DNA of 64,000 nt from an uncultured Candidatus Saccharibacteria bacterium (GCA_964354975.1 CAYHBS010000002.1:16088-80087), one strand, 5' to 3'. Shown: positions 10,593-40,036, counted from the first letter of the stretch. The notes: a model not told the origin generated them from the letters alone. A program made the numbers and translations.

Positions 10593-10606
10593 AAGGTTCT
10601 GAAGCA

Positions 10607-12826: not shown

Positions 12827-12905
12827 CGATCACATTATTGATTGGGAATTCATTGACCGTAAACCACGTTGGGTTCACGGCCATGAACTCCATGTAGTTC
12901 ATGGG

Positions 12906-12978: not shown

Positions 12979-12984
12979 AAGATA

Positions 12985-13408: not shown

Positions 13409-13966
13409 TTAGCTATCTCGCCGCACATCAACTCCGAAGCTATACGTGCGATAAGGGTTGTCCGGATCCGGTAGAAATTTCACCCTCGCTCCACGCGACG
13501 GCATATAACTGAAACATGAAACGCCGGCTGGTGGCGGAGGATCACACTCCAACACACCAATCCGATTTTGAGAACTATCTCGAAAGTCGGTCTCCTCGTT
13601 TGTGCAGTCTGAGCAAACGGGAATGACCTTCCCTTTTCCGCTCGCGATCTTGATGTACGGAGTAACGTCGCCCGGCTTATACCGACGAAATTCCGTGCTC
13701 ACCACCGTTCCTACGTCCTGTCTGAAGAGCCAATGACTCTCGAGCGGCATTTCAACCGTCGGAGAGCCTTTGTAGTGAATCACCCAGTCGGAGTCGTAGT
13801 ATGAGTCGGTAAGGGGATTGTACTGCGCAATGAGTCTCATCACATCAGCACTCGCCCCAAACGTTGTTGTCATACTACCGACGCTCATCACCATCATCGC
13901 AACGGCACTCAGAATGAAGAGTGCACGAGCAATGCGAATGATCCGAGGAATCGTTGTCTTGTTCAT
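13409..13966 (-). CDS. Membrane-anchored hypothetical protein (N-terminal TM, Cys-containing extracytoplasmic domain)
   Basis: Hydrophobic segment ALFILSAVAMMVMSVGS. Overlaps the upstream gene by 4 nt. Confidence 0.45.
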   Translation of the reverse strand: MNKTTIPRIIRIARALFILSAVAMMVMSVGSMTTTFGASADVMRLIAQYNPLTDSYYDSDWVIHYKGSPTVEMPLESHWLFRQDVGTVVSTEFRRYKPGDVTPYIKIASGKGKVIPVCSDCTNEETDFRDSSQNRIGVLECDPPPPAGVSCFSYMPSRGARVKFLPDPDNPYRTYSFGVDVRRDS

Positions 13967-16860: not shown

Positions 16861-17118
16861 ATGAAGCAAAAACTAAAAATCATCGAAACGCATCGCAGGC
16901 ATGACACAGATACCGGATCGGCGGGTGTTCAGGTCGCTATCATTTCACAGGAAATTGACAAACTTGCGTTGCATCTCAAAAAGCATCGCAAGGACAATCA
17001 CTCCCGAAGAGGACTTCTCGGTATGGTCGCAAAACGTCGTAAACTCCTTTCGTACCTCGAAAAGGAAGAGCCGAAGATATACCGCTCTACGATCAAAAAA
17101 CTTGGACTCAAGAAATAA
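16861..17118 (+). CDS. rpsO: 30S ribosomal protein S15
   Basis: TDTGSAGVQVAIISQEIDKLALHLKKHRKDNHSRRGLLGMVAKRRKLLSYL matches the S15 signature (GS.EVQVA..T..I..L..H...H.KD.HSRRGLL..V.KRRKLL.YL). Confidence 0.9.
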   Translation: MKQKLKIIETHRRHDTDTGSAGVQVAIISQEIDKLALHLKKHRKDNHSRRGLLGMVAKRRKLLSYLEKEEPKIYRSTIKKLGLKK

Positions 17119-17669
17119 TGGCCGTTCCGAAACAGAAAGATCAGTTAGTTCCCAGCGTCAAACATAAAGATCAACGTGTTGCGGTATTTATTGATGCCGC
17201 AAACATGTATCACTCTGCGCGCAGCTTGTATAATGCGCGTTTGAATTTTAAAGAGGTGCTTAAAACCGCAGTATTTAATCGGCAGCTCATTCGCGCTTTT
17301 GGATATGTTGTGCGCACAAAAACGGGAGAAGAGCAGCCGTTTTTTGATGCGCTCGTAAAACTTGGCATCGAAACACGCGTGCGCGAACTCCAAGAGTTTT
17401 TTGGGGGAGCGAAAAAAGCGGATTGGGACGTTGGTATCGCGGTGGACGCGATCCGTACGGCGGAAATCGTCGACACCATTGTGCTGATTTCCGGAGACGG
17501 AGATTTTCTCCCGCTCGTAGAATACATCAAGAACCAGGGGCGCCGCGTGGAAGTGGTTGCGTTTGGGCGCAGTTCATCTGCAAAATTAAAAGAAATGTGC
17601 GACGAGTTCACTGACTTAGACTCTGAACCAAATCGCTACTTACTAAAACGAGGAAGAGCAAATGCTTAA
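17118..17669 (+). CDS. NYN/LabA-like (PIN-like fold) domain protein
   Basis: VAVFIDAANMYHS...DWDVGIAVDAI...IVLISGDGDFLPLVEYIKNQGRRVEVVAF matches NYN-domain conserved acidic residues. The start overlaps the rpsO stop (TAATG) and the end overlaps the pnp start. Confidence 0.7.
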   Translation: MAVPKQKDQLVPSVKHKDQRVAVFIDAANMYHSARSLYNARLNFKEVLKTAVFNRQLIRAFGYVVRTKTGEEQPFFDALVKLGIETRVRELQEFFGGAKKADWDVGIAVDAIRTAEIVDTIVLISGDGDFLPLVEYIKNQGRRVEVVAFGRSSSAKLKEMCDEFTDLDSEPNRYLLKRGRANA

Positions 17670-19854
17670 TCGAGGAAAACAATTTACGTGCACCGTTGGC
17701 GGCAAAGAAATGACCGCCACATTTAATGATGCGGCTCCACAGCCAAATAGTTCGGTGCTTGTGCGTTGGGGAGACACCGTGGTGCTTGCCACCGTGGTGA
17801 TGTCGCGCGCGCAGAAATCGGGAGCAACGTATTTTCCACTCACCGTTGATTTTGAAGAGAAATTTTACGCTGCGGGCAAAATGCCTGGCATGCGATTTGT
17901 GCGCCGCGAAGGTCGACCATCGGACCACGCAATTCTCACCGGAAGATTTATCGACCGCACGATTCGTCCGCTCTTTGATCAGCGCATGCGCTATGATATT
18001 CAAGTTTCTATTCTCGTACTTTCATATGACAAGGTGCATCACCCTGATGTGGCCGCACTCCTTGCGGCGTCTCTCGTGCTACATACCAGCGACGTTCCAT
18101 GGAATGGACCAGTGGGAAGTGTGCGCGTCGCAAAAGTAAATGGGAATTTGGTTATTAACGCCACGGAAGAAGAGCGCGCGACCGCAGCATTTGAAATGCT
18201 CGTTTCCGGGCGTGATGGAAAGGTGAATATGCTGGAAGGAAGGTCGGTGGGAGCGAGTGAAAATGAGCTCATACAGGCAATTGAACTTGGCCTCAAAGAA
18301 ATTGCGGTAATCACGAAGTTTCAGGATGAGGTGCGCGCGGCAGTGGGAAAAGAAAAGCGCGTTCCTATAATCTACACTGAAATCCCTGAACTCGTTCAAC
18401 TCTTTCACAAAGAATTTCTCTCCGAACTCAAAACGCTTGTTGCGGCGGGACACGGAAAATCGGATTTGAACAACGCGTATGACACATTGGCAGAACGCTG
18501 GAACAGCGCGGCACGTGAAGCATATCCGGATGCCGCCTCGGATTTAATTGGAGATATTTTAGAACACGCGCTTGACGCTGAAGTGCATCGCCTCGCGCTC
18601 GAGGACGGAAAACGAGTGGACGGAAGAACATTTGATGAAATTCGACCTCTCTCCGCCGAGGCGGGAGTGCTTCCGCGCACACACGGATCGGGACTCTTTT
18701 ACCGAGGTGATACACATATTCTCTCGAGCGTTACGCTCGGCCCTCCTTCGGAAGATCTGCTGGTGTACACGATGACGGAGGATAAAAAGAAACGATTCAT
18801 TCATCAATATAATTTTCCTCCGTTTTCGGTGGGCGAGACGGGAAGAATGGGCAGTCCGGGACGTCGCGAAATTGGACACGGCGCACTTGCCGAAAAAGCG
18901 CTCGAACCAGTGATTCCAAATGCGGAAACATTTCCGTACATCATTCGTATCGTTTCTGAAACACTCTCTTCAAACGGATCATCTTCGATGGGATCGGTGT
19001 CTGCGTCTACCATTGCGCTGATGGATGCGGGAGTGCCAATAAAAGAGCCGGTTGCAGGAATTGCCATGGGATTATTTACGGGACCAAAAAATGCGTACAA
19101 GGTGCTCACTGACTTGCAAGGATTTGAAGATCATTATGGAGATATGGATTTTAAGGTTGCAGGAACACGCACCGCAATCACCGCGGTTCAACTCGATATT
19201 AAAGTGGCTGGTATCTCAATGGAGATGATTCGCGATACATTCAAAGACGCGCGTGTGGCGCGCCTCAAAGTACTTGATGTGATTGAGAGCGCGATTGCCA
19301 CACCACGCGCCGAACTCTCTCCGTACGCGCCTCGTATCATCACGCTCACGATTAATCCGGAAAAAATTCGCGACCTGATTGGCCCCGGAGGAAAAATCAT
19401 CAATGCCATTATTGACGCAACCGGTTGTCAGATTGATATCGAACAAGACGGCACCGTACTCATCTCAAGCCCCACCCCAGAATCCCTCGATGCTGCGGTT
19501 CAGCAAGTAAAAGCAATCACGAAAGAACCGGAAATCGGAGAAACATTTACCGGAAAAGTCACGCGTATTTTTCAGTTCGGAGCGATGGTAGAAATGGGTC
19601 CAAATCAGGAAGGACTTGTGCATATTTCCGAACTTGCGCCCTACCGCGTCGGAGAAGTAACTGATATTGTACATGTGGGAGACACCGTGCCTGTGAAAGT
19701 CATTGGAATTGATGATCTTGGACGTGTAAACCTCTCTATTAAAGCGGTGGCAACGCTCGAGCAAAAGCCTCGCCCCAGTGGAGAAGAAACGAAATCGCAT
19801 GCTCCCCAACGACCCCACCAAAATAACTCCCACGGGAGGCAAGGTAGGCGGTAA
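17662..19854 (+). CDS. pnp: Polyribonucleotide nucleotidyltransferase (PNPase)
   Basis: 730 aa. Two RNase PH-like domains, a KH domain (IRDLIGPGGKIINAI) and an S1 domain (GETFTGKVTRIFQFGAMVEM) at the C-terminus. Confidence 0.9.
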   Translation: MLNRGKQFTCTVGGKEMTATFNDAAPQPNSSVLVRWGDTVVLATVVMSRAQKSGATYFPLTVDFEEKFYAAGKMPGMRFVRREGRPSDHAILTGRFIDRTIRPLFDQRMRYDIQVSILVLSYDKVHHPDVAALLAASLVLHTSDVPWNGPVGSVRVAKVNGNLVINATEEERATAAFEMLVSGRDGKVNMLEGRSVGASENELIQAIELGLKEIAVITKFQDEVRAAVGKEKRVPIIYTEIPELVQLFHKEFLSELKTLVAAGHGKSDLNNAYDTLAERWNSAAREAYPDAASDLIGDILEHALDAEVHRLALEDGKRVDGRTFDEIRPLSAEAGVLPRTHGSGLFYRGDTHILSSVTLGPPSEDLLVYTMTEDKKKRFIHQYNFPPFSVGETGRMGSPGRREIGHGALAEKALEPVIPNAETFPYIIRIVSETLSSNGSSSMGSVSASTIALMDAGVPIKEPVAGIAMGLFTGPKNAYKVLTDLQGFEDHYGDMDFKVAGTRTAITAVQLDIKVAGISMEMIRDTFKDARVARLKVLDVIESAIATPRAELSPYAPRIITLTINPEKIRDLIGPGGKIINAIIDATGCQIDIEQDGTVLISSPTPESLDAAVQQVKAITKEPEIGETFTGKVTRIFQFGAMVEMGPNQEGLVHISELAPYRVGEVTDIVHVGDTVPVKVIGIDDLGRVNLSIKAVATLEQKPRPSGEETKSHAPQRPHQNNSHGRQGRR

Positions 19855-21431: not shown

Positions 21432-22970
21432 ATGGCTCAATGCATTCATAGCGTACAAACAATAGGCATTGTCGCACATCCCGTGGATGTTGAGGTTGAT
21501 CTTGCACCGGGACTTTTTCGATTTACTATTGTCGGTCTTCCCGATAAGGCAGTGGAGGAATCTCGAGATCGCGTAGGAGCCGCCATTGCACATAGCAAGC
21601 TCACTCCTCCGCACAAAAAACATGCGCGTGTCACCATTAACTTAGCTCCTGCGGACATCAAAAAAGAAGGGCCGATGTTTGACGTGCCTATTGCGCTCGC
21701 ATTTTTACTTGCCGGAAAACAAATTCGCTTTGATCCTGCGCGGAGATGGTTTGTGGGAGAGCTGGCACTCGACGGATCGGTGCGTGCGGGGAAAGGTATT
21801 ATTATTCTTGCGAGCGCCGCAAAGCGCGCAGGAATCACCGAACTCTACGTCCCCACCACGAATTGCGTGGAAGCGGCGATGGTTCCAGGAATTTCCGTGA
21901 TTGGTTTTTCAACGCTCGGTGAACTGATAGATCACCTTGAGGGACGCCACATCATCCCCGCAACTCCCAGTGGCACATTTCATTCCGTCACCCCTGCAAC
22001 GGTTGTAGATTTTGCGGATATCAAAGGGCAGGTGTCTGCCAGGCGCGCCGCAGAAATTGCCGCAGCGGGAAGACATCATCTCGCCCTTTCAGGACCTCCG
22101 GGCACTGGGAAAACAATGATTGCTCGTGCAATCCCAGGCATTATGCCGCCCATGACATTTGATGAAGCACTTGAAGTGACTGCAATTCATAGCGTATCGG
22201 GCACCGCGCGCGAGGATATTCGTAGCTACGGCGTCATACGCTCACGTCCATTCCGCAGTCCACATCACACAACATCCCACGCTGCGCTTGTTGGGGGAGG
22301 AACGGTGCCAAAACCGGGAGAGCTTACGCTCGCCCATCACGGTATTTTATTTCTCGACGAATTCCCAGAATTCAGTACCGCCTCCATCGAGGCGCTTCGT
22401 GAACCACTCGAAGAGCGTATGGTGACTGTTGCGCGCGTAAAAGCAACAAATACATTCCCCGCACATATTTTGCTGGTCGCAGCTATGAATCTCTGCCCGT
22501 GCGGGAGGCGAGGGGCTCACGAAGTATGCACGTGCTCACCGAGAGATCTGATGCGCTACCAACGGAAAGTGTCGGGACCCATAGTGGACCGCATTGATCT
22601 CTGGGCAAACGTTCCGCGTGTGGACGCCGCAAGCGCTACCGCGCTCCCCGCAGGGGACTCGTCGGAGCGCATGAAAGAACGTGTCGCGCGCGCTGCGCTC
22701 ATGCAGCGTGATCGATACGCGCATACTCCATATCTCTGGAACAGTGAGCTCCCCGCCGCAAAATTTGATATGTTTCTTGCACTGAGCGACGTGGCGTCTC
22801 GTACGCTCGCTACCGCGGCGTCGCAACTACACATGTCACTTCGCGCATTTCATCGTGTGAAAAAAATATCGAGAACCATTGCGGATCTCGATGCGTCGCC
22901 CTCAATTGAAAATGCACACATTCTCGAAGCGCTCCAGTTTCGCCCTCGCGTACAAGAAATACATCACTAG
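21432..22970 (+). CDS. comM: YifB/ComM-family Mg-chelatase-like AAA+ ATPase
   Basis: N-terminal Lon-protease-like ChlI domain (VDVEVDLAPGLFRFTIVGLPDKAVEESRDRV), Walker A LSGPPGTGKTM, and C-terminal Mg_chelatase_C. Confidence 0.85.
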   Translation: MAQCIHSVQTIGIVAHPVDVEVDLAPGLFRFTIVGLPDKAVEESRDRVGAAIAHSKLTPPHKKHARVTINLAPADIKKEGPMFDVPIALAFLLAGKQIRFDPARRWFVGELALDGSVRAGKGIIILASAAKRAGITELYVPTTNCVEAAMVPGISVIGFSTLGELIDHLEGRHIIPATPSGTFHSVTPATVVDFADIKGQVSARRAAEIAAAGRHHLALSGPPGTGKTMIARAIPGIMPPMTFDEALEVTAIHSVSGTAREDIRSYGVIRSRPFRSPHHTTSHAALVGGGTVPKPGELTLAHHGILFLDEFPEFSTASIEALREPLEERMVTVARVKATNTFPAHILLVAAMNLCPCGRRGAHEVCTCSPRDLMRYQRKVSGPIVDRIDLWANVPRVDAASATALPAGDSSERMKERVARAALMQRDRYAHTPYLWNSELPAAKFDMFLALSDVASRTLATAASQLHMSLRAFHRVKKISRTIADLDASPSIENAHILEALQFRPRVQEIHH

Positions 22971-24046
22971 AACGGATTTGCGGCTCCGCGAATTTCGAAG
23001 TGTACGTGGCATCCCGTGGAACGACCCGTTGTTCCAACATCTCCAATATATTGTCCTTTTTCTACGGCGCCGCCTTGCGCGACCATCACCGTACTCATGT
23101 GTCCATAGACGGTCTGTGTGCCATTTGGATGTTTAATGGCAACATATTTCCCATATCCTCCATTCCATCCGGAGTTACGCGAAATAATGACCGTACCTCC
23201 GGCAGACGCGTAGAGTGGGGTTCCACAGGGAGCGGCAATATCTACGGCATTATATCCATGGAGTCCCTGCGTTTTTTTCCCACCTGTGAGTGGGCGTCCA
23301 AAATATCCCGGTGCGCTTGGTGCGGAAGAACCGCGCACTCCGAGAGATTTTGCTACTGCGGACGGCGCTTGCGTGACCATATCGACATTTGGAATGATCA
23401 TGTCCTTGCCGACGCTTAGTGTGCTCCCTATCGCGAGCTCATTAAAAATACGAATTTCTTCAACGTCTCCTTTATATTTCTTCGCAATGGACTCAATGGT
23501 GTCTCCTTTCGCCACCGTGTGTTTCACTCCCGATACCGGAAGAATCACAAGCACGTCTCCTGGTTTAATTAGCTCGGGGCGAGAAATATTATTTGCCCAA
23601 TAAATGGTCCCTACGCTAATGCCAAACGTACGCGCAATAACGGAAAGATTGTCTCCGTCACGCACCGTGTAGGTGGTAATGATTGAAAGCCGAGTTTCTT
23701 CTGCATCAGAAATCGTGCCGAGTGGCCCAATTGCAGGAATAATGGCGTTTTCTTCGGTGTATGCCAGTGTCGGCCCTCCCGTTGCTGCTTTGGGATTGGT
23801 GTTGCGCACCGCCTCAAGAAACGGTTTTGAAATGATGGGGTCCTGGTGTGCGGCAAGTGAAGATGCGTCTACAGTTTCTACCGAAGATCCAAATAGGGTG
23901 CGGAAAAACTCTCCGATGGAAAACGCTCGCGCCAAAGAAGGAACCAGGATAACCCCCAGCATGAGGGTAAGCACTGAAACCCGCACACGACCCGCTGATC
24001 GCCTCGCGAGTCCGATATGGAGTTGTTGTGATGTAGTAATACGCAA
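22967..24046 (-). CDS. LysM-domain-containing M23-family metallopeptidase
   Basis: Two LysM-like repeats (YTVRDGDNLSVIARTF..., HTVAKGDTIESIAKKY...). M23 motifs HGYNAVDIAAP and GHMSTV...GTTGRSTGCHVHFE. Confidence 0.8.
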   Translation of the reverse strand: MRITTSQQLHIGLARRSAGRVRVSVLTLMLGVILVPSLARAFSIGEFFRTLFGSSVETVDASSLAAHQDPIISKPFLEAVRNTNPKAATGGPTLAYTEENAIIPAIGPLGTISDAEETRLSIITTYTVRDGDNLSVIARTFGISVGTIYWANNISRPELIKPGDVLVILPVSGVKHTVAKGDTIESIAKKYKGDVEEIRIFNELAIGSTLSVGKDMIIPNVDMVTQAPSAVAKSLGVRGSSAPSAPGYFGRPLTGGKKTQGLHGYNAVDIAAPCGTPLYASAGGTVIISRNSGWNGGYGKYVAIKHPNGTQTVYGHMSTVMVAQGGAVEKGQYIGDVGTTGRSTGCHVHFEIRGAANPF

Positions 24047-27007: not shown

Positions 27008-27832
27008 ATGTATATGCACGTTTGGAGGCACCTGCGGTTTGGTGCGGTGTTGCGTTATGCAGGCATAACGCTACTTTTGTTGATTTTTGGCGTCGGACTC
27101 TATTTTCAATTTGGCACTCAAGCGCTCTCCTACGTTTCAGGATTTGGAAGAAATTCAGAGCAACCTCTCATTGTTGGAAATCTTCCCGCGCAGCAGGCCA
27201 CCATCATCACCACTGGTGGAGACTGGCAGCAAACACTCAATGGTTTGGTCGCTCCGCTTGACGAGGGAAGTGGCTCATCTACTGAATATCAAAACACCAT
27301 GGTGGATGATTTGATTGGAATGTATCTCAAGGAAAAGATGCGTGTGGGGCAAGGCGGAAGCGTTGACGGAGAGGCGGTAGCGAGAAAGTACTTTAAAGAA
27401 AAGACGTATTATTCTTCGGTGCTCAGATTTCAGGAAAGCACATTTCGTATTTCCCGAACTGCATCAACAACTGTATATGCAAAAGAGTTGCAGCACGTTG
27501 TACAAATTTTTAACGACAAAACGGCAGCTCCCGCATCCCAAGCGTTTCTTGCATATCAAAAAAATGCAGACAGCAAAGATCTTGCTCCACTGATACAGAT
27601 TCAACCGATTATCCAAAACACGCTCGATACACTTCTCGCAATGGAGGTTCCCGCAGTCATGTTGTCTCTGCACAAACAAGCCGCGGAAATTCTCCTCAAT
27701 CAAGCATACTATATCTCCCAAATCACAGAGTCGAACGGCGACGTAATTCAAGAATTTACTGCGGTATCAGGATATATGCAGACACTTGAAGACGGTCCCT
27801 CAATTTACTCGCGAATTATGGCACTCAAATGA
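27008..27832 (+). CDS. Membrane-anchored hypothetical protein; first gene of the T4SS-like operon
   Basis: N-terminal TM (AGITLLLLIFGVGLYF). Its stop overlaps the next start (ATGA). Confidence 0.5.
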   Translation: MYMHVWRHLRFGAVLRYAGITLLLLIFGVGLYFQFGTQALSYVSGFGRNSEQPLIVGNLPAQQATIITTGGDWQQTLNGLVAPLDEGSGSSTEYQNTMVDDLIGMYLKEKMRVGQGGSVDGEAVARKYFKEKTYYSSVLRFQESTFRISRTASTTVYAKELQHVVQIFNDKTAAPASQAFLAYQKNADSKDLAPLIQIQPIIQNTLDTLLAMEVPAVMLSLHKQAAEILLNQAYYISQITESNGDVIQEFTAVSGYMQTLEDGPSIYSRIMALK

Positions 27833-29232
27833 TGCGCATATTCACATCTCGCCTACTGATGGCACTGTTTCTCGGCATCATACTTGTTGCGGCTCCCATG
27901 CCGTCACGCGCACAATTTGTGCCGGTATGGGTTGTGGAAGACACGCCGTTTGATGTCAAAGAAAATCTTCTTGATACGATGATGAAACCACTTGCGCGCC
28001 GCATCGCGAGCATGTTCGTTAATGCAACGGTGGATTGGCTACGCGCAGGCGGGAAAGGCGGAGGACCACTTTTCATCACCGATTTCCAAAAATTTGCTGA
28101 AGATGCGCTGGTGAACGCGTCGGGAGAATTTATTAATCAACTTGGACTCTCGGATCTTCTCTGTGGGCCGTTCCCATTTGCATTTGATATTAGTTTCTTT
28201 GGAGGAGCGGGGCGCAATAAATACGAACAGTTTGATTGCACTATTGAAGATGTCGTTGCCAATGTGGAGGATTGGCAGAATGATTTCAATAGCGGTGGGT
28301 GGCAAGCGTGGCATGAATATATGAAACCCCAAAATCGTGCAAGTAGCGCATTTATGCTCGCACTCGATACCGCAATCGTGGCAGGAGAGCAGGAGCGGGA
28401 GGAAGCAACTTCCAAGGCGAGCGCGTCTGGCGGCATACTTCCCAGCCAGCTCTGCGCAGACGTAACATACCCCACTTCAGCGGGAACCGTGGTCACTGAA
28501 GAGCGCTGTATTGACACTACTCCGCAAGAAGCAGTCGTAACTGCAGTCCATGATACATTGGGTTCGAGTATGGATTGGCTCGTTGATGCGGATGAAATAT
28601 CAGAACTTATCACAGCAGTTACCGATTTTGCAATCTCACAACTTATGAACGATGCGTCCGGTCTGTTGGGATCCGATCCCGGGCCACGCAATCTTGAACG
28701 TGATTCTGGAACTGCAATAGGTGTGGAAACAGGGAAGCAGTCGCTCAGATCGCTTACATCCTCTGCCATCACTACGGTTGACCGCACAGCAAATATTCTT
28801 CAGGCATATATCACCGAGCAACTTAGTCTTCAGCAAGATCCTCCATACAGCCCGCTGCTGTGCTCTCCTAGCAATCCGAGTTGTCTTTATACCGTCGATA
28901 ATGGAGGCTGCGCGCTTAGCCCCCCCATTAAAGGATGTCCAGTGCTCGTTTTCTACGGCGGAAATACTTTTGATGCCCAAGACCTTTACACAAATCTTCG
29001 TTTGCAGTCCGTGGAATTGGGCTCTTTCCGAGACGTTGCGGTCTCTACTGCCACCTCTATCGGTGAACTCTCGGATCTTGGTAGAGATTTGCAGTCATTA
29101 TGGAATGCGTCAAAACAATGGATTCGCATCACGGAAACCATTATGAATGAAGCACAAATTTCGGACATAGAACGTCGAATTGCTTCTACAGATGATAGTC
29201 TATCGGAATTTATTCGCTACAGCGGACAATAG
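27829..29232 (+). CDS. Secreted hypothetical protein (signal peptide, Cys-containing)
   Basis: Signal peptide MMRIFTSRLLMALFLGIILVAAPMPSRA. 467 aa. Translationally coupled on both sides. Confidence 0.5.
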   Translation: MMRIFTSRLLMALFLGIILVAAPMPSRAQFVPVWVVEDTPFDVKENLLDTMMKPLARRIASMFVNATVDWLRAGGKGGGPLFITDFQKFAEDALVNASGEFINQLGLSDLLCGPFPFAFDISFFGGAGRNKYEQFDCTIEDVVANVEDWQNDFNSGGWQAWHEYMKPQNRASSAFMLALDTAIVAGEQEREEATSKASASGGILPSQLCADVTYPTSAGTVVTEERCIDTTPQEAVVTAVHDTLGSSMDWLVDADEISELITAVTDFAISQLMNDASGLLGSDPGPRNLERDSGTAIGVETGKQSLRSLTSSAITTVDRTANILQAYITEQLSLQQDPPYSPLLCSPSNPSCLYTVDNGGCALSPPIKGCPVLVFYGGNTFDAQDLYTNLRLQSVELGSFRDVAVSTATSIGELSDLGRDLQSLWNASKQWIRITETIMNEAQISDIERRIASTDDSLSEFIRYSGQ

Positions 29233-29235
29233 AAT

Positions 29236-31429
29236 GCGAAAGTTTACTACTATTATTACGTCTATTCTTCTCTCTGCGCTGTTGCTCGCGATATTTGTCC
29301 CATCGCTTGCGCTGGCACAAAGCGGTGACGCATATAACGCGAATTTAACGATTATAGGGGAGACAAATCCTTGCGGAATAACAGGCTTGAGCTTCTGGTT
29401 AAGTACATGTCTTGTATACTGGTTTGCCAACTTTTTAGGAATAATTCTGTGGATGCTCGGGTGGATTATAGGGATCATCGGGCAGATATTTACCATTTTT
29501 GCATCTTTTGCGCTCAGTGGCGCCATGTTCGATTCTGCCTCCATCGATGAGGGGTGGATGATAATGAGGGATATTGGCAACATCGCATTCATATTTATTT
29601 TGCTCTATATTGGGGTAACTACCATATTAGATATTGGTGGGGTTAACACGAATAAACTGCTCGCGCGCGTGGTGATTGCAGTGCTACTCATGAATTTTAG
29701 CCTCGCACTCACGAAAATACCGATTGACGCAAGTAATGTATTCGCTATTGCGTTTCATAATGCGATTGGAAATGGAAACGCAAGAACCGATGGCTTTGAT
29801 CTTGATATTGATTCCTCTTTACGAAATATCGATATTTCCGGTGAACTGATGACTGCGATGAGTCCGCAACGACTCTTCACCTCGGTACAGATCGGCGCAG
29901 ACACTGTAACCAGCGCTAATTTTATGGAGACAATCATGGCGGTGATCGTAAATAGTATTTTTGCCCTTGTTGCGCTCGGTCTCCTAATTTATGTATTTCT
30001 CACAGGTATTGTGATTTTTTTGGTGCGCATCGTTGCACTATCAATGGTGCTGATTTTTTCGCCCGCCGCAGTTATTGCCTACGCCGCTGGCATGGATGGT
30101 TTTTTCAAAAAATGGAAAACATATCTCGTGAACTATGCAGTCGTGGCTCCTATCTATATGTTCTTTATTTATCTCACGCTCCGATTTGCAAAGAGTCCAT
30201 TTCTGCAAAAAGCATTTCAAGATGGCTTTTCAGGATTAGGGCAAGGGTGGGGAGTGGCCTCGATTGCAGAGTGGGCGTCTGGAAACGCAGTTTTTTTAGT
30301 TGGTTATTTTATGATCATTGGATTCCTCCAAGCTGGGGTAAAGATTGCAAAGCAGCTGGGCATTGTAGGGGCAGACGCTATTGATAAGCTTGGTAAAAAA
30401 TTTGCGGTCGTAGGTAAGGTTGCCGCACTCGCAACACCGCTGGGTGCGGGTATGGCCGCGGTAAGTATTGCTCAAAAGACTCTGTTTAACCCAGCGGCAA
30501 ACATTGTTAAGGCCGGGAAGTTGCGCACCGTGGATAGGGGACTGAAGGGTGTATATAACAAACTCGAGGCATCGACAAAAGCGGATCAAGAGGCTGGTAC
30601 AAAACGAAATATTGGAACACGCTTGCTACGCAACTATGGCATGAGGGGCGCCAATGCGGCGCTTGGACAAACTGAGGATCGTATTAAAGAATCTGAGAAG
30701 GAATTTGCAAGTGTGCGTTCAGCAGATGAATTAAAACTCGCTATCTCGAGTCCATTTATTAGCGCGGAAAAAGCGATGGCGGGAATGCGAGTACTCGCAG
30801 AAAAATTCAAAGACTTTAAACCGTTCGGCACATTCGATCCAAAGAACTTTGAGGCACTTTATGGCAGATTTAAGAATATAGGCGTCAATACGAAAAGTAT
30901 CGAGGATGTTGATCCAAGGTTTGCTAAACTTGGCAAGTCTGCAGATAAAACTCCAATGGAGCAGGTGGCCGAATCTGCAAAAAAACGATCAAATCGCGAG
31001 CGCATTCAAGGATACGATCAGGGAATCTTTGGTGCGGCAGATAAGGATGGAGTGGGAGATAGAGCGGCAGATGCGGAAAAGGTTGGTCTCGCGATTGCAG
31101 AAGGTATTGTAAGTTCTGGAAAGATGGAAAATATTATCACTATGCAGCAACACTCTGCCGCTGGTGAAAAGCGTCTCGTAGAAGTCTTACAATCATACGT
31201 GAATGAATATCACACAAAGAAGGGAACCACGGGAGACATCATTAAAGACGTGAAAGAGGCTCTGGAAGAAAAGGGCCTCGGGCGCGTCGCAAGAGGACTA
31301 GAAAATTCAAACTCCATAGAGGTGCGCGCGCTAATTCAAGAAAAAGTGGAGATGAAAAAAGTGACTGGTAAAAATCCGGGTGGCGCTGAGCGAACGATTC
31401 TTGATTCAGTTGAAAACTCTGCATTATGA
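29236..31429 (+). CDS. VirB6/TrbL-like polytopic membrane protein with long hydrophilic C-terminal domain
   Basis: Signal peptide plus about 6-8 predicted TM helices in the N-terminal 400 aa, followed by a charged about 330-aa tail. The topology and operon context with VirB4 and PrgI-like genes match the VirB6/TrbL class. Confidence 0.5.
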
Positions 31430-32877
31430 AATACCCCCTTATTCAAGTGAGGGAAATAGTGCATACGCTTCCGCAGAGTATACTCATGGTATTTGAGTCT
31501 GACAAAACAGGGGAAATTATCCGAGAAATAGCGGAAAAATTTCAACTAGAAGATAAAACTACTTGGGCCCTCGCAGATCAAGTTACATATACGCTTGTTG
31601 GACTGCTGAATCCAGAACAATTTCATGATTCGGTCATGCGCGAGCTCAACCTTCGTCCATCAGAAACTGACGAGATAGTAAAAGAGGTTGATGAAAAAAT
31701 TTTTCAACACATTCGATCTGACCTTAATAATCTTGCGCGGGGTGGTGCGCCAAAATTTACTGACGCAGCGCAGACTCCACCAACTCCACATCCTCCAACG
31801 CCTGCGATTATCCCCAACGTGCCAGCGCATGCGCCTGACCAAATTGAACGCGCAGCCGCTTCTTCATTATGGAATATCCCATTAAACCCTGTGGTCACCG
31901 AGGCCACTCCCATGACGCCGCGCACACTATCAACTCCCTCCCCACAAAAAATCTCTCCGGAACCTGTGCCACAGCCGCTCCAACCAAAATCAGCAGCCCC
32001 ACTCCCTCCGCCACCAAAAGAGGAGCTGGTGGTGCCTCATAAAAGCGGATCTCAACACACGAGCAACATGCCAGGAATGCGTCATCCGTGGCTTTCAGAT
32101 CCGATCAAACTTCCCAGTACGGTCGCGCCCACTCCCGGCTCCGTAAAGGAAGTAGAGAAAAAGGGGCTGACCGAAAAGCCAAAGGTGCCCACCTTTGAAA
32201 AGGTAAGTGCAAGTACGAAGACAGAGATTATAACGGCGCCCTCCGTATCTGTCGCAACAAAACCTGAATCACCTAACATTTCTTCTATTCCGCAACCGAT
32301 ACAACAAAGAGCTCCGATGCCCGCGAGCACACCCTCCATCGTAAAGCCCCTTACTTCGACTACGCCCCTCCAAAAAACTTCAGCACCGGCACCTGCGAAC
32401 GTATCAGTTCCGCTCAAACCACACATCTCGGAACCTGTTTCAACCAAAGACATAACATCCACCGAAGTGATTATGCCCGGGAAGGGAGTGAACATCCCAA
32501 TACCTAAAATGGTAAGTCGTCTTCCTATAGAAGAGCGGGACGCGTCGCGCATTACCATTGTGCGTAAGCAAGTTACAGAAGCGCCAAAAACTATTACCAC
32601 AAAAGTGCCGTCCACTCCAGCGGACGCTCCAATTTCACCCGTTTCTTCAACAATATCACCTAGCGCTCATAAAACTTCAAACAATTCAATCACACGCACC
32701 ACACCAACTCCCGTAGCGTCTGCAACCGAAGCGGTGAAGTCGCCAATAAAAATACCCACCCCTGGAGCTCCGTCGCACGAGGTGGTGCGTCCAGAAAAAA
32801 CTCCTATCACGCCACCAACGCCGGACACACCAATATACCAAGGCGGAAAAGATCCTTATCGCGAGCCAGTATCCTAA
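31426..32877 (+). CDS. Hypothetical protein with structured N-domain and long Pro/Thr/Ser-rich low-complexity region
   Basis: The N-terminal 110 aa are globular, followed by PTPHPPTPAIIPNVPAH... and repeated P/S/T-rich segments. Confidence 0.45.
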   Translation: MKYPLIQVREIVHTLPQSILMVFESDKTGEIIREIAEKFQLEDKTTWALADQVTYTLVGLLNPEQFHDSVMRELNLRPSETDEIVKEVDEKIFQHIRSDLNNLARGGAPKFTDAAQTPPTPHPPTPAIIPNVPAHAPDQIERAAASSLWNIPLNPVVTEATPMTPRTLSTPSPQKISPEPVPQPLQPKSAAPLPPPPKEELVVPHKSGSQHTSNMPGMRHPWLSDPIKLPSTVAPTPGSVKEVEKKGLTEKPKVPTFEKVSASTKTEIITAPSVSVATKPESPNISSIPQPIQQRAPMPASTPSIVKPLTSTTPLQKTSAPAPANVSVPLKPHISEPVSTKDITSTEVIMPGKGVNIPIPKMVSRLPIEERDASRITIVRKQVTEAPKTITTKVPSTPADAPISPVSSTISPSAHKTSNNSITRTTPTPVASATEAVKSPIKIPTPGAPSHEVVRPEKTPITPPTPDTPIYQGGKDPYREPVS

Positions 32878-32878
32878 T

Positions 32879-33304
32879 ATGTTGCAATTTCAAGTACCAC
32901 AATTCGTCGATGTTGAAGATAAGGTGATTTGGATTTTATCATTCCGGCAGTTTGGTATTTTTCTTGCCGCAGGTGGGCTCATCTTTCTCGTCCGACAATT
33001 TCGCTTTCCCACAGCCATTTTTGGCATCTTTGCACTTGCCATTGTGGGATTTGCGTACATGCTTGCGTTCCTTAAAGCAGAGGGGAGGCCATTTCATCAT
33101 CGCGTTCTTGGATTTATTCGCTACTATTTCAGCCCGCAACTCTATCTCTGGGCAACGCCGAAAGAATCTGCTCGTGAAGTGGAACAGCGTGACCAGAAAA
33201 AAGCACAGCGGATCGTAGCGGCGGCACCCGTTACCGAAAAGAAGCTTACTCCCAATAAACTAAAGGAGCTCGCCTGGAAGCTTAATATTCACGAACAGAA
33301 ATAA
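32879..33304 (+). CDS. PrgI-family small membrane protein (Gram-positive-type T4SS component)
   Basis: MLQFQVPQFVDVEDKVIWILSFRQFGIFLAAGGL matches the PrgI-family N-terminal signature (VPQ..D.EDK...G.L..RQ) followed by two TM helices. Confidence 0.6.
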   Translation: MLQFQVPQFVDVEDKVIWILSFRQFGIFLAAGGLIFLVRQFRFPTAIFGIFALAIVGFAYMLAFLKAEGRPFHHRVLGFIRYYFSPQLYLWATPKESAREVEQRDQKKAQRIVAAAPVTEKKLTPNKLKELAWKLNIHEQK

Positions 33305-33305
33305 T

Positions 33306-33947
33306 ATGGCTAATTTACCAGCGTCACAAAAAATATTAGAGATCGAGGAAATACGAGACAATGTGCTCGTGATTAAAAATAAGGGGCTCCGCACCATACT
33401 TCTCTGTACCTCGATTAACTTCGACCTCAAATCCACTGATGAACAAGAGTCTATTATTCTTTCATATCAACGCTTTATCAATACACTCGATTTTCCGGTA
33501 CAATTTTTTGTCTCTTCGCGCAGATTAAACATCGATGGGTATTTGGACGATCTTCGAATACGCGCAAGTGAGGAAACAAATGAATTACTAAAAATACAGA
33601 CCAATGAGTATATTGCGTTCATGAAGTCCCTCGTGACCTCAAACAGTATCGTTACAAAAACGTTTTATACGGTCGTACCATATCAGCCTGCTGAAGCAAC
33701 GAAAGAAGCATCAATGATTTCTGGAGTATTTAGTATGATCACGGGAAAGCAAAAAACGGACGCGGATGTTGCAGAAAAATTTGATGAGTGGAAATCACAA
33801 CTCTTGCAACGCGTGGCGGTTGTTGAGCAGGGACTCTCGGGAATTGGCATTCGCTCGGTCGCGCTCGGTACGGAAGAACTCATTGAACTCTTCCGGCAAC
33901 TCTACAATCCGGATCTCGCAGGACCTATTGGAGTGACAATAAAATAA
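33306..33947 (+). CDS. VirB4/TraC-type ATPase N-terminal domain encoded as a separate ORF
   Basis: LVIKNKGLRTILLCTSINFDLKSTDEQESIILSYQRFINTLDFPVQFFVSSRRLNIDGYL is the conserved N-terminal region of Gram-positive VirB4 homologs. It is separated from the ATPase ORF by TAA plus 1 nt. Confidence 0.65.
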   Translation: MANLPASQKILEIEEIRDNVLVIKNKGLRTILLCTSINFDLKSTDEQESIILSYQRFINTLDFPVQFFVSSRRLNIDGYLDDLRIRASEETNELLKIQTNEYIAFMKSLVTSNSIVTKTFYTVVPYQPAEATKEASMISGVFSMITGKQKTDADVAEKFDEWKSQLLQRVAVVEQGLSGIGIRSVALGTEELIELFRQLYNPDLAGPIGVTIK

Positions 33948-33948
33948 T

Positions 33949-35757
33949 ATGGCGCTATTTAATAAACAACAAAAAAATCTTCCTGCCAATATCGCGCCCG
34001 TTCTTCCCGACGACGTGTATCGCGAGGGACTTGTCGAAATGCGGGATATTATTGCTCCAAGCGCATTTTCGATAGCGTCCGCACATGTACAACTTGGGAA
34101 TGTATTTACGCGCACCATGTTTGTACTCTCGTACCCGCGCACACTCGCTCCTAATTGGTTTGGCGACATCATCAGTCTTGATAAAGTATATGACGTTTCA
34201 ATATTTATCCATCCTGCAGACACCGCAAAGGTGCTGAAGGACTTACAAAAACAATCGGCACGCGTACTTTCGCAAATTCGCGAAAACGAAGAGAAGGGAA
34301 TGGTGCGCGACCCCATGCTCGATACCGCATATCGAGACATAGAGACACTGCGAGATCGCCTCCAGCAGGCAACGGAAAAATATTTTTCATTTGGACTGTA
34401 TATTACGGTGTATGCCGACTCTGCAGATGCACTAAACAAAGCGGAGCATGAAGTAAGATCAATTCTAAGCTCTAAGCTCATTGAGACTCGCCCCGCGATG
34501 TTCCGACAAAAAGAGGGGCTTCACTCCACGTTTCCAATGGGCACTGATCTGTTGGGGGTAAATTATAATATGAACACCGCTCCGATATCTAGCGTCTTCC
34601 CATTTTCTTCACTCGAACTTACGTCGGATAGGGGAATTCTCTACGGTATGAATCGAAGTAATGCCTCGCTTGTTATTTTTGATCGCTACAGCTTGGAGAA
34701 TTACAACTCCGTTATTCTTGCCACTTCAGGAGCCGGAAAATCATACACCGCAAAGTTAGAAATTATCCGCTCCCTGATGTTGGGTACGGAAGTGATTATT
34801 ATCGACCCCGAGCGCGAGTATGAGTTTCTTGCGGAATCCATCGGCGGGCGCGCATTCAATATTTCTCTCACGTCAAAGCATCATATCAATCCATTCGACC
34901 TTCCAACACCCAGAGAAGACGAATCATTGTCTGATGTGCTCCGCTCGCACATCATCGGACTGGTGGGGCTCTTTCGTATTATGCTCGGTGGACTCACCCC
35001 CGAGGAAGATGCGGTGCTCGACCGCGCAATCACCGAAACGTACGCAACGAAGGACATCACCGCAGAAAGCGACTTTACCGGGCGCACGCCTCCGCTACTC
35101 ACTGACCTGGAGCTTGTACTATCTAATATGGAGGGTGGGGAGGCACTCGCAATGCGACTGCGAAAATATACTACTGGTACGTGGGCGGGGTTTCTTAATC
35201 AACACACCAACGTCGATATCACAAAAAAATTAACAGTATTTTCGGTGCGCGACATGCAAGACGATCTCCGCCCCATTGCGATGTATCTCATTGTCCAGCA
35301 CATTTGGAATGCTATTCGACAAGAACTAAAGAAGCGTATACTACTCGTCGATGAGGCGTGGTGGATGATGAAAAGTGAGGACGGCGCATCATTCCTCTTT
35401 GGTATCGCGAAGCGCGCGCGTAAATATTATCTAGGTCTCATGACCATCACGCAGGACGTTGCGGACTTTATGGGCTCGCAGTATGGACGCGCCATTATCA
35501 CGAACTCATCCGTACAGCTACTGCTCAAACAATCTCCGAGCACGATTGATATTGTAAAAGAAACATTTCACCTCACCGATGAAGAACGATATTTACTGCT
35601 TGGCGCAGAGGTGGGAACGGGAATATTCTTTGCGGGAATGAAGCATGTCGCAATTCGCGTAATTTCCTCTTATACTGAACATCAGATTATCACTTCTGAT
35701 CCATCGGAAATCCTGGCAGTCAAACAAGCAAAAGAAGAATATGCGAGTAATCAATAA
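33949..35757 (+). CDS. VirB4/TrbE/CagE-family T4SS ATPase (central and C-terminal domains)
   Basis: Walker A ATSGAGKSYTAKLEI, IIIDPEREY, Walker B LLVDEAWWMM and the ITQDVADF motif. Extensive collinearity with the VirB4 family. Confidence 0.85.
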   Translation: MALFNKQQKNLPANIAPVLPDDVYREGLVEMRDIIAPSAFSIASAHVQLGNVFTRTMFVLSYPRTLAPNWFGDIISLDKVYDVSIFIHPADTAKVLKDLQKQSARVLSQIRENEEKGMVRDPMLDTAYRDIETLRDRLQQATEKYFSFGLYITVYADSADALNKAEHEVRSILSSKLIETRPAMFRQKEGLHSTFPMGTDLLGVNYNMNTAPISSVFPFSSLELTSDRGILYGMNRSNASLVIFDRYSLENYNSVILATSGAGKSYTAKLEIIRSLMLGTEVIIIDPEREYEFLAESIGGRAFNISLTSKHHINPFDLPTPREDESLSDVLRSHIIGLVGLFRIMLGGLTPEEDAVLDRAITETYATKDITAESDFTGRTPPLLTDLELVLSNMEGGEALAMRLRKYTTGTWAGFLNQHTNVDITKKLTVFSVRDMQDDLRPIAMYLIVQHIWNAIRQELKKRILLVDEAWWMMKSEDGASFLFGIAKRARKYYLGLMTITQDVADFMGSQYGRAIITNSSVQLLLKQSPSTIDIVKETFHLTDEERYLLLGAEVGTGIFFAGMKHVAIRVISSYTEHQIITSDPSEILAVKQAKEEYASNQ

Positions 35758-36742
35758 ATTTGTTACAATTATCGCTACCGCCGTCCTCTGTACACCCTGG
35801 TTTCTCAACTTCACGTTCGTGAATGCACAATTTGGTGCGCCAACTGTTTCACCTGGACAAATCCAAATTATTGCGACACCAACTCAATCAAACGCGAATG
35901 AAGCAGTAACGCTCGAAGCAAGGTCGTACGCCGTTAATCTGAATGCAATGGATATTATTTGGTATGCCGATGATAAAATTGTTACTTCAGGTTACGGCCT
36001 TTATTCCACTACGGTCACCCTTGGTGCCATTGGATCAGAAACACGCTTACGCGTCGTGGGAAGAATGTCTGGGGCGTTAGTTGCTGAGGGATTTATTACG
36101 CTTCGCCCCGCTAATCTTGTTCTTGTTATGGAGGCAAACTCCACTGCTCCATTTTGGTATCAAGGAAGAAAACTCCCGTCTCCTCGGGGGTCAGTGAGCA
36201 TTACCGCATTTCCCACGCTTGCGGGAATATACGCATCGTTAAGTCCAAATAGATTGCAGTATACTTGGCATGTAAATAACTCGGGTGCAATTGCGCTCGC
36301 TGGGGTAGGGAAGCAAACATTGCGCCTTCCCCTTCCAAAAGCCCCCACAGCGGTTACGCGAGTACAAGTAACCGTTACCGACCCCAGAGGCACATATTCT
36401 GCAACCGGATTTGTGCATGTGATACCTGAAAAACCACACGTTACACTATTCAGTGATCAATCACACTCGCGTACACGAAACGCGGTTTCCGGAACAATAC
36501 AACTCCGTCCTGATGAAAAAATTGGTCTTTACGCGGAACCTTTTTATATAGGAAATTCTGGAGATCATACGTTTGAATGGAAAAGTAACGGACAAAAAAT
36601 TCCCATCACTGGAGAGCGTGGCAACACCGCAGTCCTCACTATGCCAAGCGTCCCCGCTGCATACACAATCACCGCTAGCGTCTTAAATATCCAAAATGCC
36701 TTTGAGCGTGCGATGGCTACATTAATCTTACGAGTCGAATAA
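35741..36742 (+). CDS. Secreted beta-rich hypothetical protein
   Basis: Signal peptide (VTIIATAVLCTPWFLNFTFVNA). Overlaps the VirB4 ORF end. Confidence 0.5.
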   Translation: MRVINKFVTIIATAVLCTPWFLNFTFVNAQFGAPTVSPGQIQIIATPTQSNANEAVTLEARSYAVNLNAMDIIWYADDKIVTSGYGLYSTTVTLGAIGSETRLRVVGRMSGALVAEGFITLRPANLVLVMEANSTAPFWYQGRKLPSPRGSVSITAFPTLAGIYASLSPNRLQYTWHVNNSGAIALAGVGKQTLRLPLPKAPTAVTRVQVTVTDPRGTYSATGFVHVIPEKPHVTLFSDQSHSRTRNAVSGTIQLRPDEKIGLYAEPFYIGNSGDHTFEWKSNGQKIPITGERGNTAVLTMPSVPAAYTITASVLNIQNAFERAMATLILRVE

Positions 36743-36743
36743 C

Positions 36744-37190
36744 ATGAGCACGTTGTTTAAAACTTTTTGGACCTCACTCGTTATGTTTGTCTTTACAACC
36801 GGAGTGGTATTCGCACAAACGTTCCCTGCGCCGTACCAATTATCAGAACCGCTACCTGGGTCTCCCAATAGGGCGGTGGGTAGCCTCGCGGAGTATTTGA
36901 GTCTTGCATATATATCGCTCCTTTCTGCTTCGATTGCCTTTGGATTAGTCATGTTGGTTTATAGTGGGGTGGAATATATCACTGCGGGTGGAAATCAAAA
37001 TGCAATAAAAAGCGCAAAGGACCGAATGTTTAGAATCGCAAAGGGTTTCATTATTATCGTTGGAGCCGTGTTGCTTCTCACTACATTAGGAGGAGACTCG
37101 CTTTTGGAGATGAATTTCGATATACGTCCAACTGGCACGCCATTTCCTACAGGAAACAATGCTCCGTCGGCTCCTACTGGTAATGAATAG
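36744..37190 (+). CDS. Small secreted protein with two hydrophobic helices, a candidate VirB2/TrbC-like pilin
   Basis: Signal peptide, then two TM segments separated by a short loop (LSLAYISLLSASIAFGLVMLVY...GFIIIVGAVLLLTTLGG), about 120 mature residues. This is pilin-like architecture in the T4SS-like operon. Confidence 0.4.
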   Translation: MSTLFKTFWTSLVMFVFTTGVVFAQTFPAPYQLSEPLPGSPNRAVGSLAEYLSLAYISLLSASIAFGLVMLVYSGVEYITAGGNQNAIKSAKDRMFRIAKGFIIIVGAVLLLTTLGGDSLLEMNFDIRPTGTPFPTGNNAPSAPTGNE

Positions 37191-37196
37191 ACCTAT

Positions 37197-38357
37197 ATGA
37201 ACAGCTCCCGAAAAAAAATCCTTATCATCATTTCGTTTGTCATTATTCTTTCTGGCATGAGTACGCTTTTTTGGTATTTTAATCGGCAAGAAGGCGGAGT
37301 GGCGCCGGAAGGGAATCTTCCGGACAGCGAGGGGCGTGTCGACTCTCCTGGCGTTTCAGCTGGACCGGTGGGCACTATTATCACCGAGGGGGAGGAGGCC
37401 ACGGCGGAAATCGCGCAGAATGTTATTAGCGGCGTATTTGCTCCCAACAGCGCTACCGTAAGATATATTGAGCGCGCGAGTGGACTTGTGTACGAAAAAC
37501 CGATCACGGGAGGCACGGCAATAGCACTCTCGGACAAGCGGCTTGATAACGCCTATATTGCCGATTGGGCGGGGAATGGCAGCGCCGCACTTCTCACATT
37601 TTCCACCGATGGGGTAAAACCAAATTTTGCGCACGTCGCATTCACGTCTTCAAGCTCGGTGGTCACGGTGCTTCCCGCAGAAACGCTATTTGCGGCAATC
37701 TCACCCGATGGCGCGCGCGTGGCATTTGCGAAAACGTCCACGGACGGATCAATTATTGCGAGCGCGCTCCCAAATGGCACAAAACCGATTACCCTTGCGC
37801 CGCACCCGCAAACTCAACTTCTCATGTCGTGGGACGTGAGTGCCCGCCCGGTAGTGCGCAACCCGGGCTCCGCATTTGCCGAGAGCCTTGCTTGGATGGT
37901 TGGGGGCGGCACTTATACTCCGATCGTTCCTGCGTCGTATCAGCTCTCTCTTCTTGAGCGTCCGTCCGGGCAATACATACTCTACAGTGCGGCTGAAAAA
38001 AGCACGGACGCGCCATCTCTCTACCTTATCGATACAAAAACAAAAACCACTACGGAACGACTGATGACTGCGCCATTTGCAACGTATCCGGAGAAGTGTG
38101 CCTGGGCGCGTGTAAATATGTCGGTTGTCTATTGTGCGGTTCCTACAAATATTCCAAAACAAAGTTACGACGCGTGGCTCCGTGGTGAACAACATTTTAC
38201 TGATCGCATCCTGCAGTGGGATATACTCACCGGTGAAGTAAAAACAATTGTGGAGGGAAATTTTGATGCAATTGAGCTTGCCATTGCTCCCGATGATAGT
38301 GCGCTACTTTTTGTAAACAAAAATGACTCCTCACTCTGGGGTCACATGCTCAAATAA
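37197..38357 (+). CDS. Secreted protein with TolB-like beta-propeller repeats, hypothetical
   Basis: N-terminal TM/signal anchor. Repeated ISPDGARVAFAK / IAPDDSALLF motifs typical of WD40-like (TolB/PD40) blades. Last gene of the operon. Confidence 0.45.
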   Translation: MNSSRKKILIIISFVIILSGMSTLFWYFNRQEGGVAPEGNLPDSEGRVDSPGVSAGPVGTIITEGEEATAEIAQNVISGVFAPNSATVRYIERASGLVYEKPITGGTAIALSDKRLDNAYIADWAGNGSAALLTFSTDGVKPNFAHVAFTSSSSVVTVLPAETLFAAISPDGARVAFAKTSTDGSIIASALPNGTKPITLAPHPQTQLLMSWDVSARPVVRNPGSAFAESLAWMVGGGTYTPIVPASYQLSLLERPSGQYILYSAAEKSTDAPSLYLIDTKTKTTTERLMTAPFATYPEKCAWARVNMSVVYCAVPTNIPKQSYDAWLRGEQHFTDRILQWDILTGEVKTIVEGNFDAIELAIAPDDSALLFVNKNDSSLWGHMLK

Positions 38358-39901: not shown

Positions 39902-40036
39902 TTATACCGTAAGACGCTTACGTCCTTTTGCTCGGCGCCGTTTCACAACCTTCACGCCTCCAGCACTGCGCCGTCGCTTTAAAAAGCCATGGGAACGGCT
40001 CCGTTTTCTCTTTTTTGGTTGATAGGTAACTGACAT
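39902..40036 (-). CDS. rpmH: 50S ribosomal protein L34 (not in the supplied ORF track; below the length cutoff)
   Basis: Minus-strand translation [44 protein letters not shown] (44 aa), a canonical L34, directly upstream of rnpA. Confidence 0.85.

Follow-up and report, generated by a model that had tools for sequence, protein, structure and literature searches.

A chromosomal type IV secretion-like operon beside dnaA in an uncultured patescibacterial genome

We analyzed a 64,000-nucleotide stretch of DNA from an uncultured Candidatus Saccharibacteria bacterium (GCA_964354975.1 CAYHBS010000002.1:16088-80087), referred to here as the window, and concentrated on a plus-strand operon at positions 27008-38357 whose products resemble components of type IV secretion systems (T4SSs). 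Ten plus-strand open reading frames (ORFs), designated g1 to g10, fill this interval in the ORF map, rather than the eleven genes counted in the initial annotation. The overlapping and abutting stops and starts described there were reproduced, with junctions from g1 to g10 of -4, +1, -4, +1, +1, +1, -17, +1, and +6 nt. The ten genes, with transmembrane (TM) segments from hydropathy, are as follows.

27008-27832, plus strand: g1, 274-aa bitopic protein with an N-terminal TM anchor
27829-29232, plus strand: g2, 467-aa secreted protein, mostly helical, with eight cysteines, immediately upstream of the VirB6-like g3
29234-31429, plus strand: g3, 731-aa extended VirB6/TrbL-like polytopic membrane protein
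31426-32877, plus strand: g4, 483-aa protein with neither TM segment nor signal peptide (composition and hydropathy)
32879-33304, plus strand: g5, 141-aa PrgI/VirB3-like protein with two TM segments
33306-33947, plus strand: g6, 213-aa TrsD/TraC-like cytoplasmic protein, counterpart of the N-terminal domain of full-length VirB4
33949-35757, plus strand: g7, 602-aa VirB4-family ATPase lacking the N-domain carried by g6
35741-36742, plus strand: g8, 333-aa secreted protein of three homologous repeats of ~100 aa
36744-37190, plus strand: g9, 148-aa VirB2/TrbC-type T4SS pilin with a signal peptide and two hydrophobic helices
37197-38357, plus strand: g10, 386-aa membrane-anchored TolB-like beta-propeller protein with an N-terminal TM segment

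The operon and its products

All ten genes are under purifying selection. Measured against the locus of a relative that is ~90% identical (L089), their dN/dS values range from 0.01 to 0.2, with dS near saturation. All ten ORFs are thus genuine genes. The lowest ratio in the operon belongs to the VirB4 gene g7 (0.012); that of the neighboring UvrD is 0.046. A scan for promoters and terminators gave no enrichment over shuffled sequence, and a search within the window for further copies of the operon families, or for a small membrane protein that is optional in relatives, found none.

Profile searches supported the initial assignments of PrgI, VirB4, pilin, TolB, and, by way of orthologues, VirB6. 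Homology thereby identifies a motor (g5, g6, and g7) and a pilin (g9), with g3 as a putative platform. The VirB4-family ATPase g7 scores 363.6 bits against NF045971 (CD1110 family; cut-off 325), aligning to model positions 180-732 only, and also matches P-loop_TraG, AAA_10, DUF87, and CagE_TrbE_VirB in Pfam. Its Walker A (GAGKS, residues 261-265) and Walker B (DEAW, residues 468-471) motifs fall in columns that are invariant in the family alignment, and a partial match to CedB was recorded in NCBIfam (3.2e-12). The 213-aa ORF preceding VirB4, which had been left unrecognized in the initial annotation, is TrsD-like. In NCBIfam, g6 aligns with two VirB4 models (CD1110, over positions 13-119, and Mbov_0397, over positions 106-233) as well as with the TrsD model NF041427. 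PF26593 (TraC-like) is recorded for its orthologues, and its identity across the class is 38-53%. Taken together, the g6 and g7 model matches show that the VirB4 N-domain is a separate polypeptide, g6, and that VirB4 is in effect split, as in pGO1.

The remaining motor component, g5, matches PF12666 marginally (26.6 bits against a cut-off of 27), but the same match is on record for an identical protein and for orthologues, in keeping with its earlier description as PrgI-like. By hydropathy, g3 starts with a signal peptide, crosses the membrane about six times, and ends in a hydrophilic tail of ~330 aa. No match to g3 itself was found in Pfam, NCBIfam, or the PDB, but five of its 26 positional orthologues match PF04610 (TrbL/VirB6; best E = 1.9e-7), a family that the topology of g3 fits. 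A gene of this type occupies the same position in 39 of the 41 fully covered loci described below.

The putative pilin, g9, likewise scores below threshold against PF18895 (T4SS_pilin; 20 bits, E = 7.5e-4, cut-off 26.6), but this family is matched by 25 of its 28 positional orthologues, and TrbC/VirB2 by ten of them. The window pilin is comparatively short, as it lacks a C-terminal domain that many relatives carry (alignment A3). Profile searches of the PDB with g3 and g9 returned nothing useful. In several Paceibacteria, the pilin is fused to a C-terminal hydrolase domain, namely NlpC/P60 (two cases), Amidase_5 (two), Peptidase_M15_4 (one), or CHAP (one).

The other five products are accessory proteins, three of them from conserved families for which no fold is known. 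We found no direct Pfam or NCBIfam match for g1. Comparison with the positional family A8 gave an hhalign probability of 95% (E = 3e-8), and g1 appears to be a divergent member of this family, which always opens the operon in relatives. Members of the family have a TM anchor, a TSP3-type calcium-binding repeat (DxDxDGxxDWxE), and a helical domain, with TSP3_bac matched in nine of 28; the dN/dS of g1 is 0.07 (against L089). At the other end of the operon, the g10 family profile matches TolB propellers in the PDB (E = 2.8e-5), as had been proposed, and single members match PD40, DUF5050, and PG_binding_1. HMM searches gave no match to a VirB8-like (NTF2-fold) protein, and the two bitopic proteins, g1 and g10, instead match the A8 family and TolB-like propellers.

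The secreted g2 might serve as a stalk, tip, or adhesin component. Its family is very large (3702 clusters at 50% identity, 2439 of them with E ≤ 1e-10), and the gene is present in 32 of the 41 loci with full flanks. A word-indexed homologue search returned four close relatives only, and a concatenated g2+g8 alignment gave the same four. An AF2 model built from this four-sequence alignment was unusable (pLDDT 49.8), and a Foldseek search with it found nothing. A profile search of the PDB with g2 returned nothing useful, and no solved homologue of its fold was recognized. Two sequence types apparently occur at the g2 position (for example in L012, L014, L017, L027, and L036), one carrying 'WIxxGFxGGPLFV', as in the window, and the other being Kaiserbacteria-like, 'GGPYVPVADYAVELNTG...'. 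Some g2 orthologues carry fn3, discoidin, or Big_7 tails.

In g4, the family alignment (A7, 27 relatives) shows a conserved helical N-domain of ~100 aa, a Pro/Thr-rich disordered linker whose length differs widely among relatives, and an invariant C-terminal DPYREP. This gene is present in 38 of 41 full loci and has no match in Pfam or the PDB. Its layout resembles that of hub proteins that dock via a C-terminal peptide. The three repeats of g8 match one another with hhalign probabilities of 91-97%. They are probably immunoglobulin (Ig)-like, given the E-value of 2.3e-3 between the g8 profile and the Ig domains of T4 Hoc and the weak Ig-like signals of orthologues (Ig_3, BiPBP_C, and PKD).

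Conservation, genomic context, and identity of the system

The operon lies among housekeeping genes. On the upstream side are an unassigned 411-aa ORF and genes for PNPase, proteins with an NYN domain and with a zinc finger of the DksA/TraR type, ComM, an M23/LysM hydrolase, UvrD/PcrA, and KsgA. Downstream, on the minus strand, are Jag, YidC, RnpA, and L34, and then DnaA, DnaN, a class A penicillin-binding protein, RuvC, RuvB, PilB, PolA, and UvrB. The ComM (21432-22970) and GspE/PilB (48942-50618) genes reported in the initial annotation were both confirmed, the latter on the minus strand; they lie 4 kb upstream and 10 kb downstream of the operon, respectively. Two neighbors bear on the comparisons that follow.

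22967-24046, minus strand: LysM + Peptidase_M23 cell-wall hydrolase (Pfam), which also neighbors the operon in relatives
39902-40036, minus strand: rpmH (L34, 44 aa), between rnpA and dnaA and below the default ORF length cut-off

This arrangement is widely shared. Both the closed Niyogibacteria genome CP066691.1 and Giovannonibacteria share with the window the gene order ComM-M23/LysM-UvrD-KsgA-[operon]-Jag-YidC-RnpA-L34-DnaA-DnaN. Scanning the GTDB species representatives yielded 80 loci, distributed over Kaiser-, Giovannoni-, Niyogi-, Nomura-, Adler-, Taylor-, and Terrybacteria and unnamed Paceibacterota, with gene order kept, so that both context and order are conserved in ~80 Paceibacteria species. 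Each of g3 to g10 occurs in 37-40 of the 41 loci with full flanks, and the two closest relatives (L085 and L089) match the window gene for gene across all ten. In many relatives, an eleventh gene lies between VirB4 and the Ig-repeat gene and encodes a small, 110-300-aa membrane protein that has several hydrophobic segments (seen at L001:11827-12210 and in 30 other loci). These proteins form one family (29 of 31 linked), which is absent from the window and from L085 and L089.

Homologues of g7 number in the thousands; the best 120 are all ~600 aa long and 64-69% identical, and wherever a source is named among these 120, it is a Patescibacteria/Parcubacteria lineage or the generic 'bacterium'. 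The best tblastn segments between loci L001-L084 and the window give class-wide identities of 62-68% for VirB4 and 39-67% for DnaA; VirB4 also exceeds UvrD, YidC, and Jag in conservation. The closest plasmid-encoded homologues of VirB4, from Actinobacteria and Firmicutes, share 30-38% identity. An identical VirB4 occurs on contigs from Hainich groundwater, sampled as 0.1 um filter fractions.

We also examined the window for signs of mobility, scanning most of its ORFs of at least 110 aa across the 64 kb with Pfam and NCBIfam. No relaxase, VirD4/TcpA, VirB8, VirB9, VirB10, VirB11, or integrase of an integrative and conjugative element (ICE) was found in these ORFs, in agreement with the initial annotation, which had noted the lack of VirB8-VirB11, VirD4, and a relaxase. 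The window's only recombinase is Xer-type and lies 11 kb upstream, with housekeeping genes in between. The GC content of the operon (0.465-0.50) falls within that of the flanking windows (0.40-0.53), with no discontinuity. Because the scanned ORFs contain no relaxase or type IV coupling protein (T4CP) and the sole recombinase is Xer-type, the gene content indicates that the cluster is not a mobile element.

A known family of systems accounts for these features. Quinonero-Coronel et al. (2025, PMC12102498) described a VirB4 clade of Patescibacteria that is monophyletic and falls within MPF-FATA. In their survey, Patescibacteria virB4 is associated with TrsD, PrgI/VirB3, VirB6, and VirB2-like pilins and with almost no relaxases; T4CP genes rarely adjoin it, VirD4 homologues being present in 2,918 genomes but nearly all at a distance. 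In Paceibacteria, VirB1 homologues, some with M23/LysM domains, are tied to virB4, and the T4SS loci lie near dnaA, dnaN, rnpA, ksgA, and rpmH (PMC12102498). Like these systems, the operon in the window combines a patescibacterial-type VirB4 whose P-loop is intact with an adjacent TrsD, a marginal PrgI/VirB3, a putative VirB6-like protein, and a VirB2-like pilin. It has no adjacent relaxase or T4CP, and it occupies a chromosomal site beside dnaA, dnaN, ksgA, rnpA, and rpmH, in association with an M23/LysM hydrolase. Unlike many Paceibacteria loci, it carries no small membrane protein gene after VirB4, and it has a single pilin gene where the saccharibacterial cluster of Southlakia epibionticum has a six-pilin array.

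The likeness to Gram-positive conjugation systems is also clear. It extends to a CD1110-family VirB4, a separate TrsD (as in pGO1), PrgI/VirB3-like and VirB6-like polytopic proteins, and the lack of an outer-membrane core complex. The operon differs from these systems in that no relaxase, coupling protein, or recognizable VirB8-like protein (PrgL/TcpC/ConB) was found in the scanned ORFs. It also differs in possessing a pilin, where Gram-positive systems have no VirB2-type pilin, in the low VirB4 identity given above, and in its fixed chromosomal site and vertical inheritance.

The best explanation overall, and in our judgement a highly probable one, is a vertically inherited, chromosome-encoded T4SS of the Patescibacteria clade, in its Paceibacteria version, derived from monoderm MPF-FATA conjugation machinery. 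The initial annotation had proposed a minimal Gram-positive-type T4SS-like machine in a core region near dnaA and not an ICE. This proposal agrees with the HMM matches, with the synteny across ~80 species, and with published work (PMC12102498, PMC10633639, and PMC12857230). The system itself, which ultra-small Patescibacteria carry next to the replication origin, was published in 2023-2025, and the present copy adds a member, not a new kind. What the locus illustrates is how rigidly the Paceibacteria version is maintained, as an operon of 10-11 genes fixed next to oriC, whose VirB4 equals or exceeds DnaA in conservation. Modest additions are the five conserved accessory families, the DPYREP motif, and the pilin-hydrolase fusions in relatives. 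Neither the accessory set (g1, g2, g4, g8, and g10) nor DPYREP is mentioned in PMC12102498 (main text) or in those passages of the other papers on the T4SS that were consulted. These families and the C-terminal peptide motif offer concrete targets for structural and genetic work.

Possible functions

A large share of bacterial diversity lives epibiotically, and Patescibacteria T4SSs are among the few machines known to be essential for this way of life. Wang et al. (2023, PMC10633639) showed that the Southlakia epibionticum cluster SEML1_0006-0019, which is without a coupling protein or relaxase, is essential for epibiotic growth. PMC12857230 and PMC11665869 give its role as unknown and comEC-dependent competence as dispensable. 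A 2026 preprint (bioRxiv 10.64898/2026.06.21.733656) describes tubular structures, possibly T4SS pili, at a parasite-host interface together with host RNA uptake.

Because no relaxase or coupling protein was found among the scanned ORFs of the window, the machine is predicted not to be a conjugative DNA exporter. Beyond the identities of its components, we infer a pilus-bearing host-contact conduit of an epibiont, which is the reading we favor. VirB4, acting with TrsD and VirB3, would energize the extraction of pilin and its polymerization on the VirB6 platform, and the polymerized pilin would form a conjugative-type pilus or tube crossing the cell wall. The exported g1 and g2, the Ig-repeat protein g8, and the TolB-like g10 could make up a wall-spanning scaffold and a host-contact or tip module in place of the missing VirB8, VirB9, and VirB10. 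A cytoplasmic adaptor role is conceivable for g4, which might dock via its C-terminal DPYREP peptide. Peptidoglycan could be opened by hydrolases, here the M23/LysM neighbor and in relatives the pilin-fused NlpC/P60, M15, amidase, and CHAP domains; the M23/LysM protein is a possible candidate for a VirB1-type functional analogue, and might be linked to the machine in function. In its fullest form the proposal is a tentative one, to which we give somewhat less than an even chance. It holds that g1, g2, g4, g8, and g10 are integral Paceibacteria-specific T4SS subunits, that with the hydrolase-fused pilins of relatives they form a wall-spanning, host-piercing module replacing VirB5, VirB8, VirB9, and VirB10, and that the DPYREP tail docks on the VirB4/TrsD motor.

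Several points weigh against the overall explanation. The VirB6 and pilin assignments of the window proteins are sub-threshold in Pfam and rest on orthologues, and a further g2 model has no specific match. Since no VirB8-like protein was found, giving g1, g2, g8, and g10 a scaffold role amounts to guesswork, and the direction of transport and the cargo of the Paceibacteria system are pure inference. A coupling protein or relaxase could lie beyond the 64-kb window. Finally, the Southlakia authors leaned toward protein export or an alternative role (PMC10633639).

As to what such a conduit might carry, import of host macromolecules, nucleic acids first, seems to us a reasonable suggestion whose chance falls only just short of even. 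Import is favored because the scanned ORFs of the window include no coupling protein or relaxase and because of the analogy with two other T4SS-related systems, Helicobacter pylori ComB and archaeal Ced, which have no coupling protein and take up DNA (PMC12102498 and PMC11665869). Like ComB and archaeal Ced/Ted, the operon encodes a VirB4-type ATPase, a polytopic membrane protein, and a VirB2-like pilin, with neither coupling protein nor relaxase. The analogy has limits, in that ComB carries a diderm VirB7-10 core and the components of Ced are not orthologous to those of the operon beyond the P-loop.

Protein export runs in the opposite direction, the system injecting or releasing proteins onto the host bacterium to manipulate or permeabilize it. 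We consider this rather unlikely, with more to recommend it than the readings that follow. Wang et al. (PMC10633639) see the missing coupling protein and relaxase as evidence against DNA transport, and effector delivery is speculated upon in PMC11665869. Effector translocators without a T4CP are known, namely Bordetella Ptl and Brucella VirB (PMC12102498), and the exported, fast-evolving g2, with its adhesin-like tails, could itself be a substrate. However, the substrates of Ptl and the Brucella system rely on Sec and a diderm core complex, which is absent here. The window yielded no candidate effector, chaperone, or secretion signal, and nothing among the scanned ORFs resembles an operon-linked toxin. 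A pilus serving adhesion only is unlikely. The standings given to import, export, and adhesion reflect judgement, not measurement.

Less probable still is a natural-competence apparatus that would take up DNA together with ComEC, ComM, and a type IV pilus. The proximity of ComM and PilB suggests such a role, T4SS loci of the class ABY1 co-locate with comF, recG, and radA (PMC12102498), and ComB and Ced provide precedents. However, ComM, UvrD, KsgA, and PilB are conserved housekeeping neighbors of the origin region and lie outside the operon. In Southlakia, comEC is needed for transformation and dispensable for growth, and the T4SS is essential, so the essential role is not ComEC-dependent competence (PMC10633639 and PMC12857230). 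PilB and ComM had been taken in the initial annotation to favor a DNA-uptake or host-interaction apparatus over a mobile element. The second half of that argument holds, given the scanned ORFs and the lone Xer-type recombinase, whereas the case for DNA uptake is weak, because both genes are syntenic housekeeping neighbors and the Southlakia T4SS, unlike comEC, is reported as essential.

An ordinary ICE or the remnant of an integrated plasmid with a Gram-positive-type conjugation system is suggested by a VirB4 of the CD1110 family, which was defined on conjugative elements, by nearest plasmid homologues that are conjugative Gram-positive systems, and by the tyrosine recombinase upstream, but is effectively refuted at this locus by the lack of a relaxase or VirD4/TcpA in the scanned ORFs, the Xer-type nature of the recombinase and the housekeeping genes that separate it from the operon, the even GC content, the identical insertion context in ~80 species, and a VirB4 that is more conserved than DnaA and has a dN/dS of 0.012.

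Other features of the window

The Xer-type recombinase and three genes at the left end of the window are listed here.

15404-16318, minus strand: Xer-type tyrosine recombinase (XerC, XerD, and XerA models, ~233-235 bits)
1188-2225, minus strand: thermolysin-type M4 peptidase
3100-4206, minus strand: metallo-beta-lactamase-fold protein
4391-5683, plus strand: patatin-like phospholipase

The recombinase gene adjoins two unannotated minus-strand ORFs (13409-13966 and 13963-15282), and four tRNA genes lie nearby at 10037-13307. The 439-aa ORF of this pair beside the recombinase shows a marginal match to the VirB6-like family HMM (E = 0.064). The NYN-domain RNase and PNPase genes (17118-19854), 7 kb upstream of the operon, are in conserved synteny with it, and are of interest given the 2026 preprint, which ties PNPase and VirB4 to host-RNA feeding. 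The M4 peptidase, metallo-beta-lactamase-fold, and phospholipase genes all fall in the first 6 kb of the window (1-6000), where the GC content is 0.59-0.61, as compared with 0.40-0.53 in the rest. Horizontal acquisition of an island, or a chimeric assembly, could explain this stretch.

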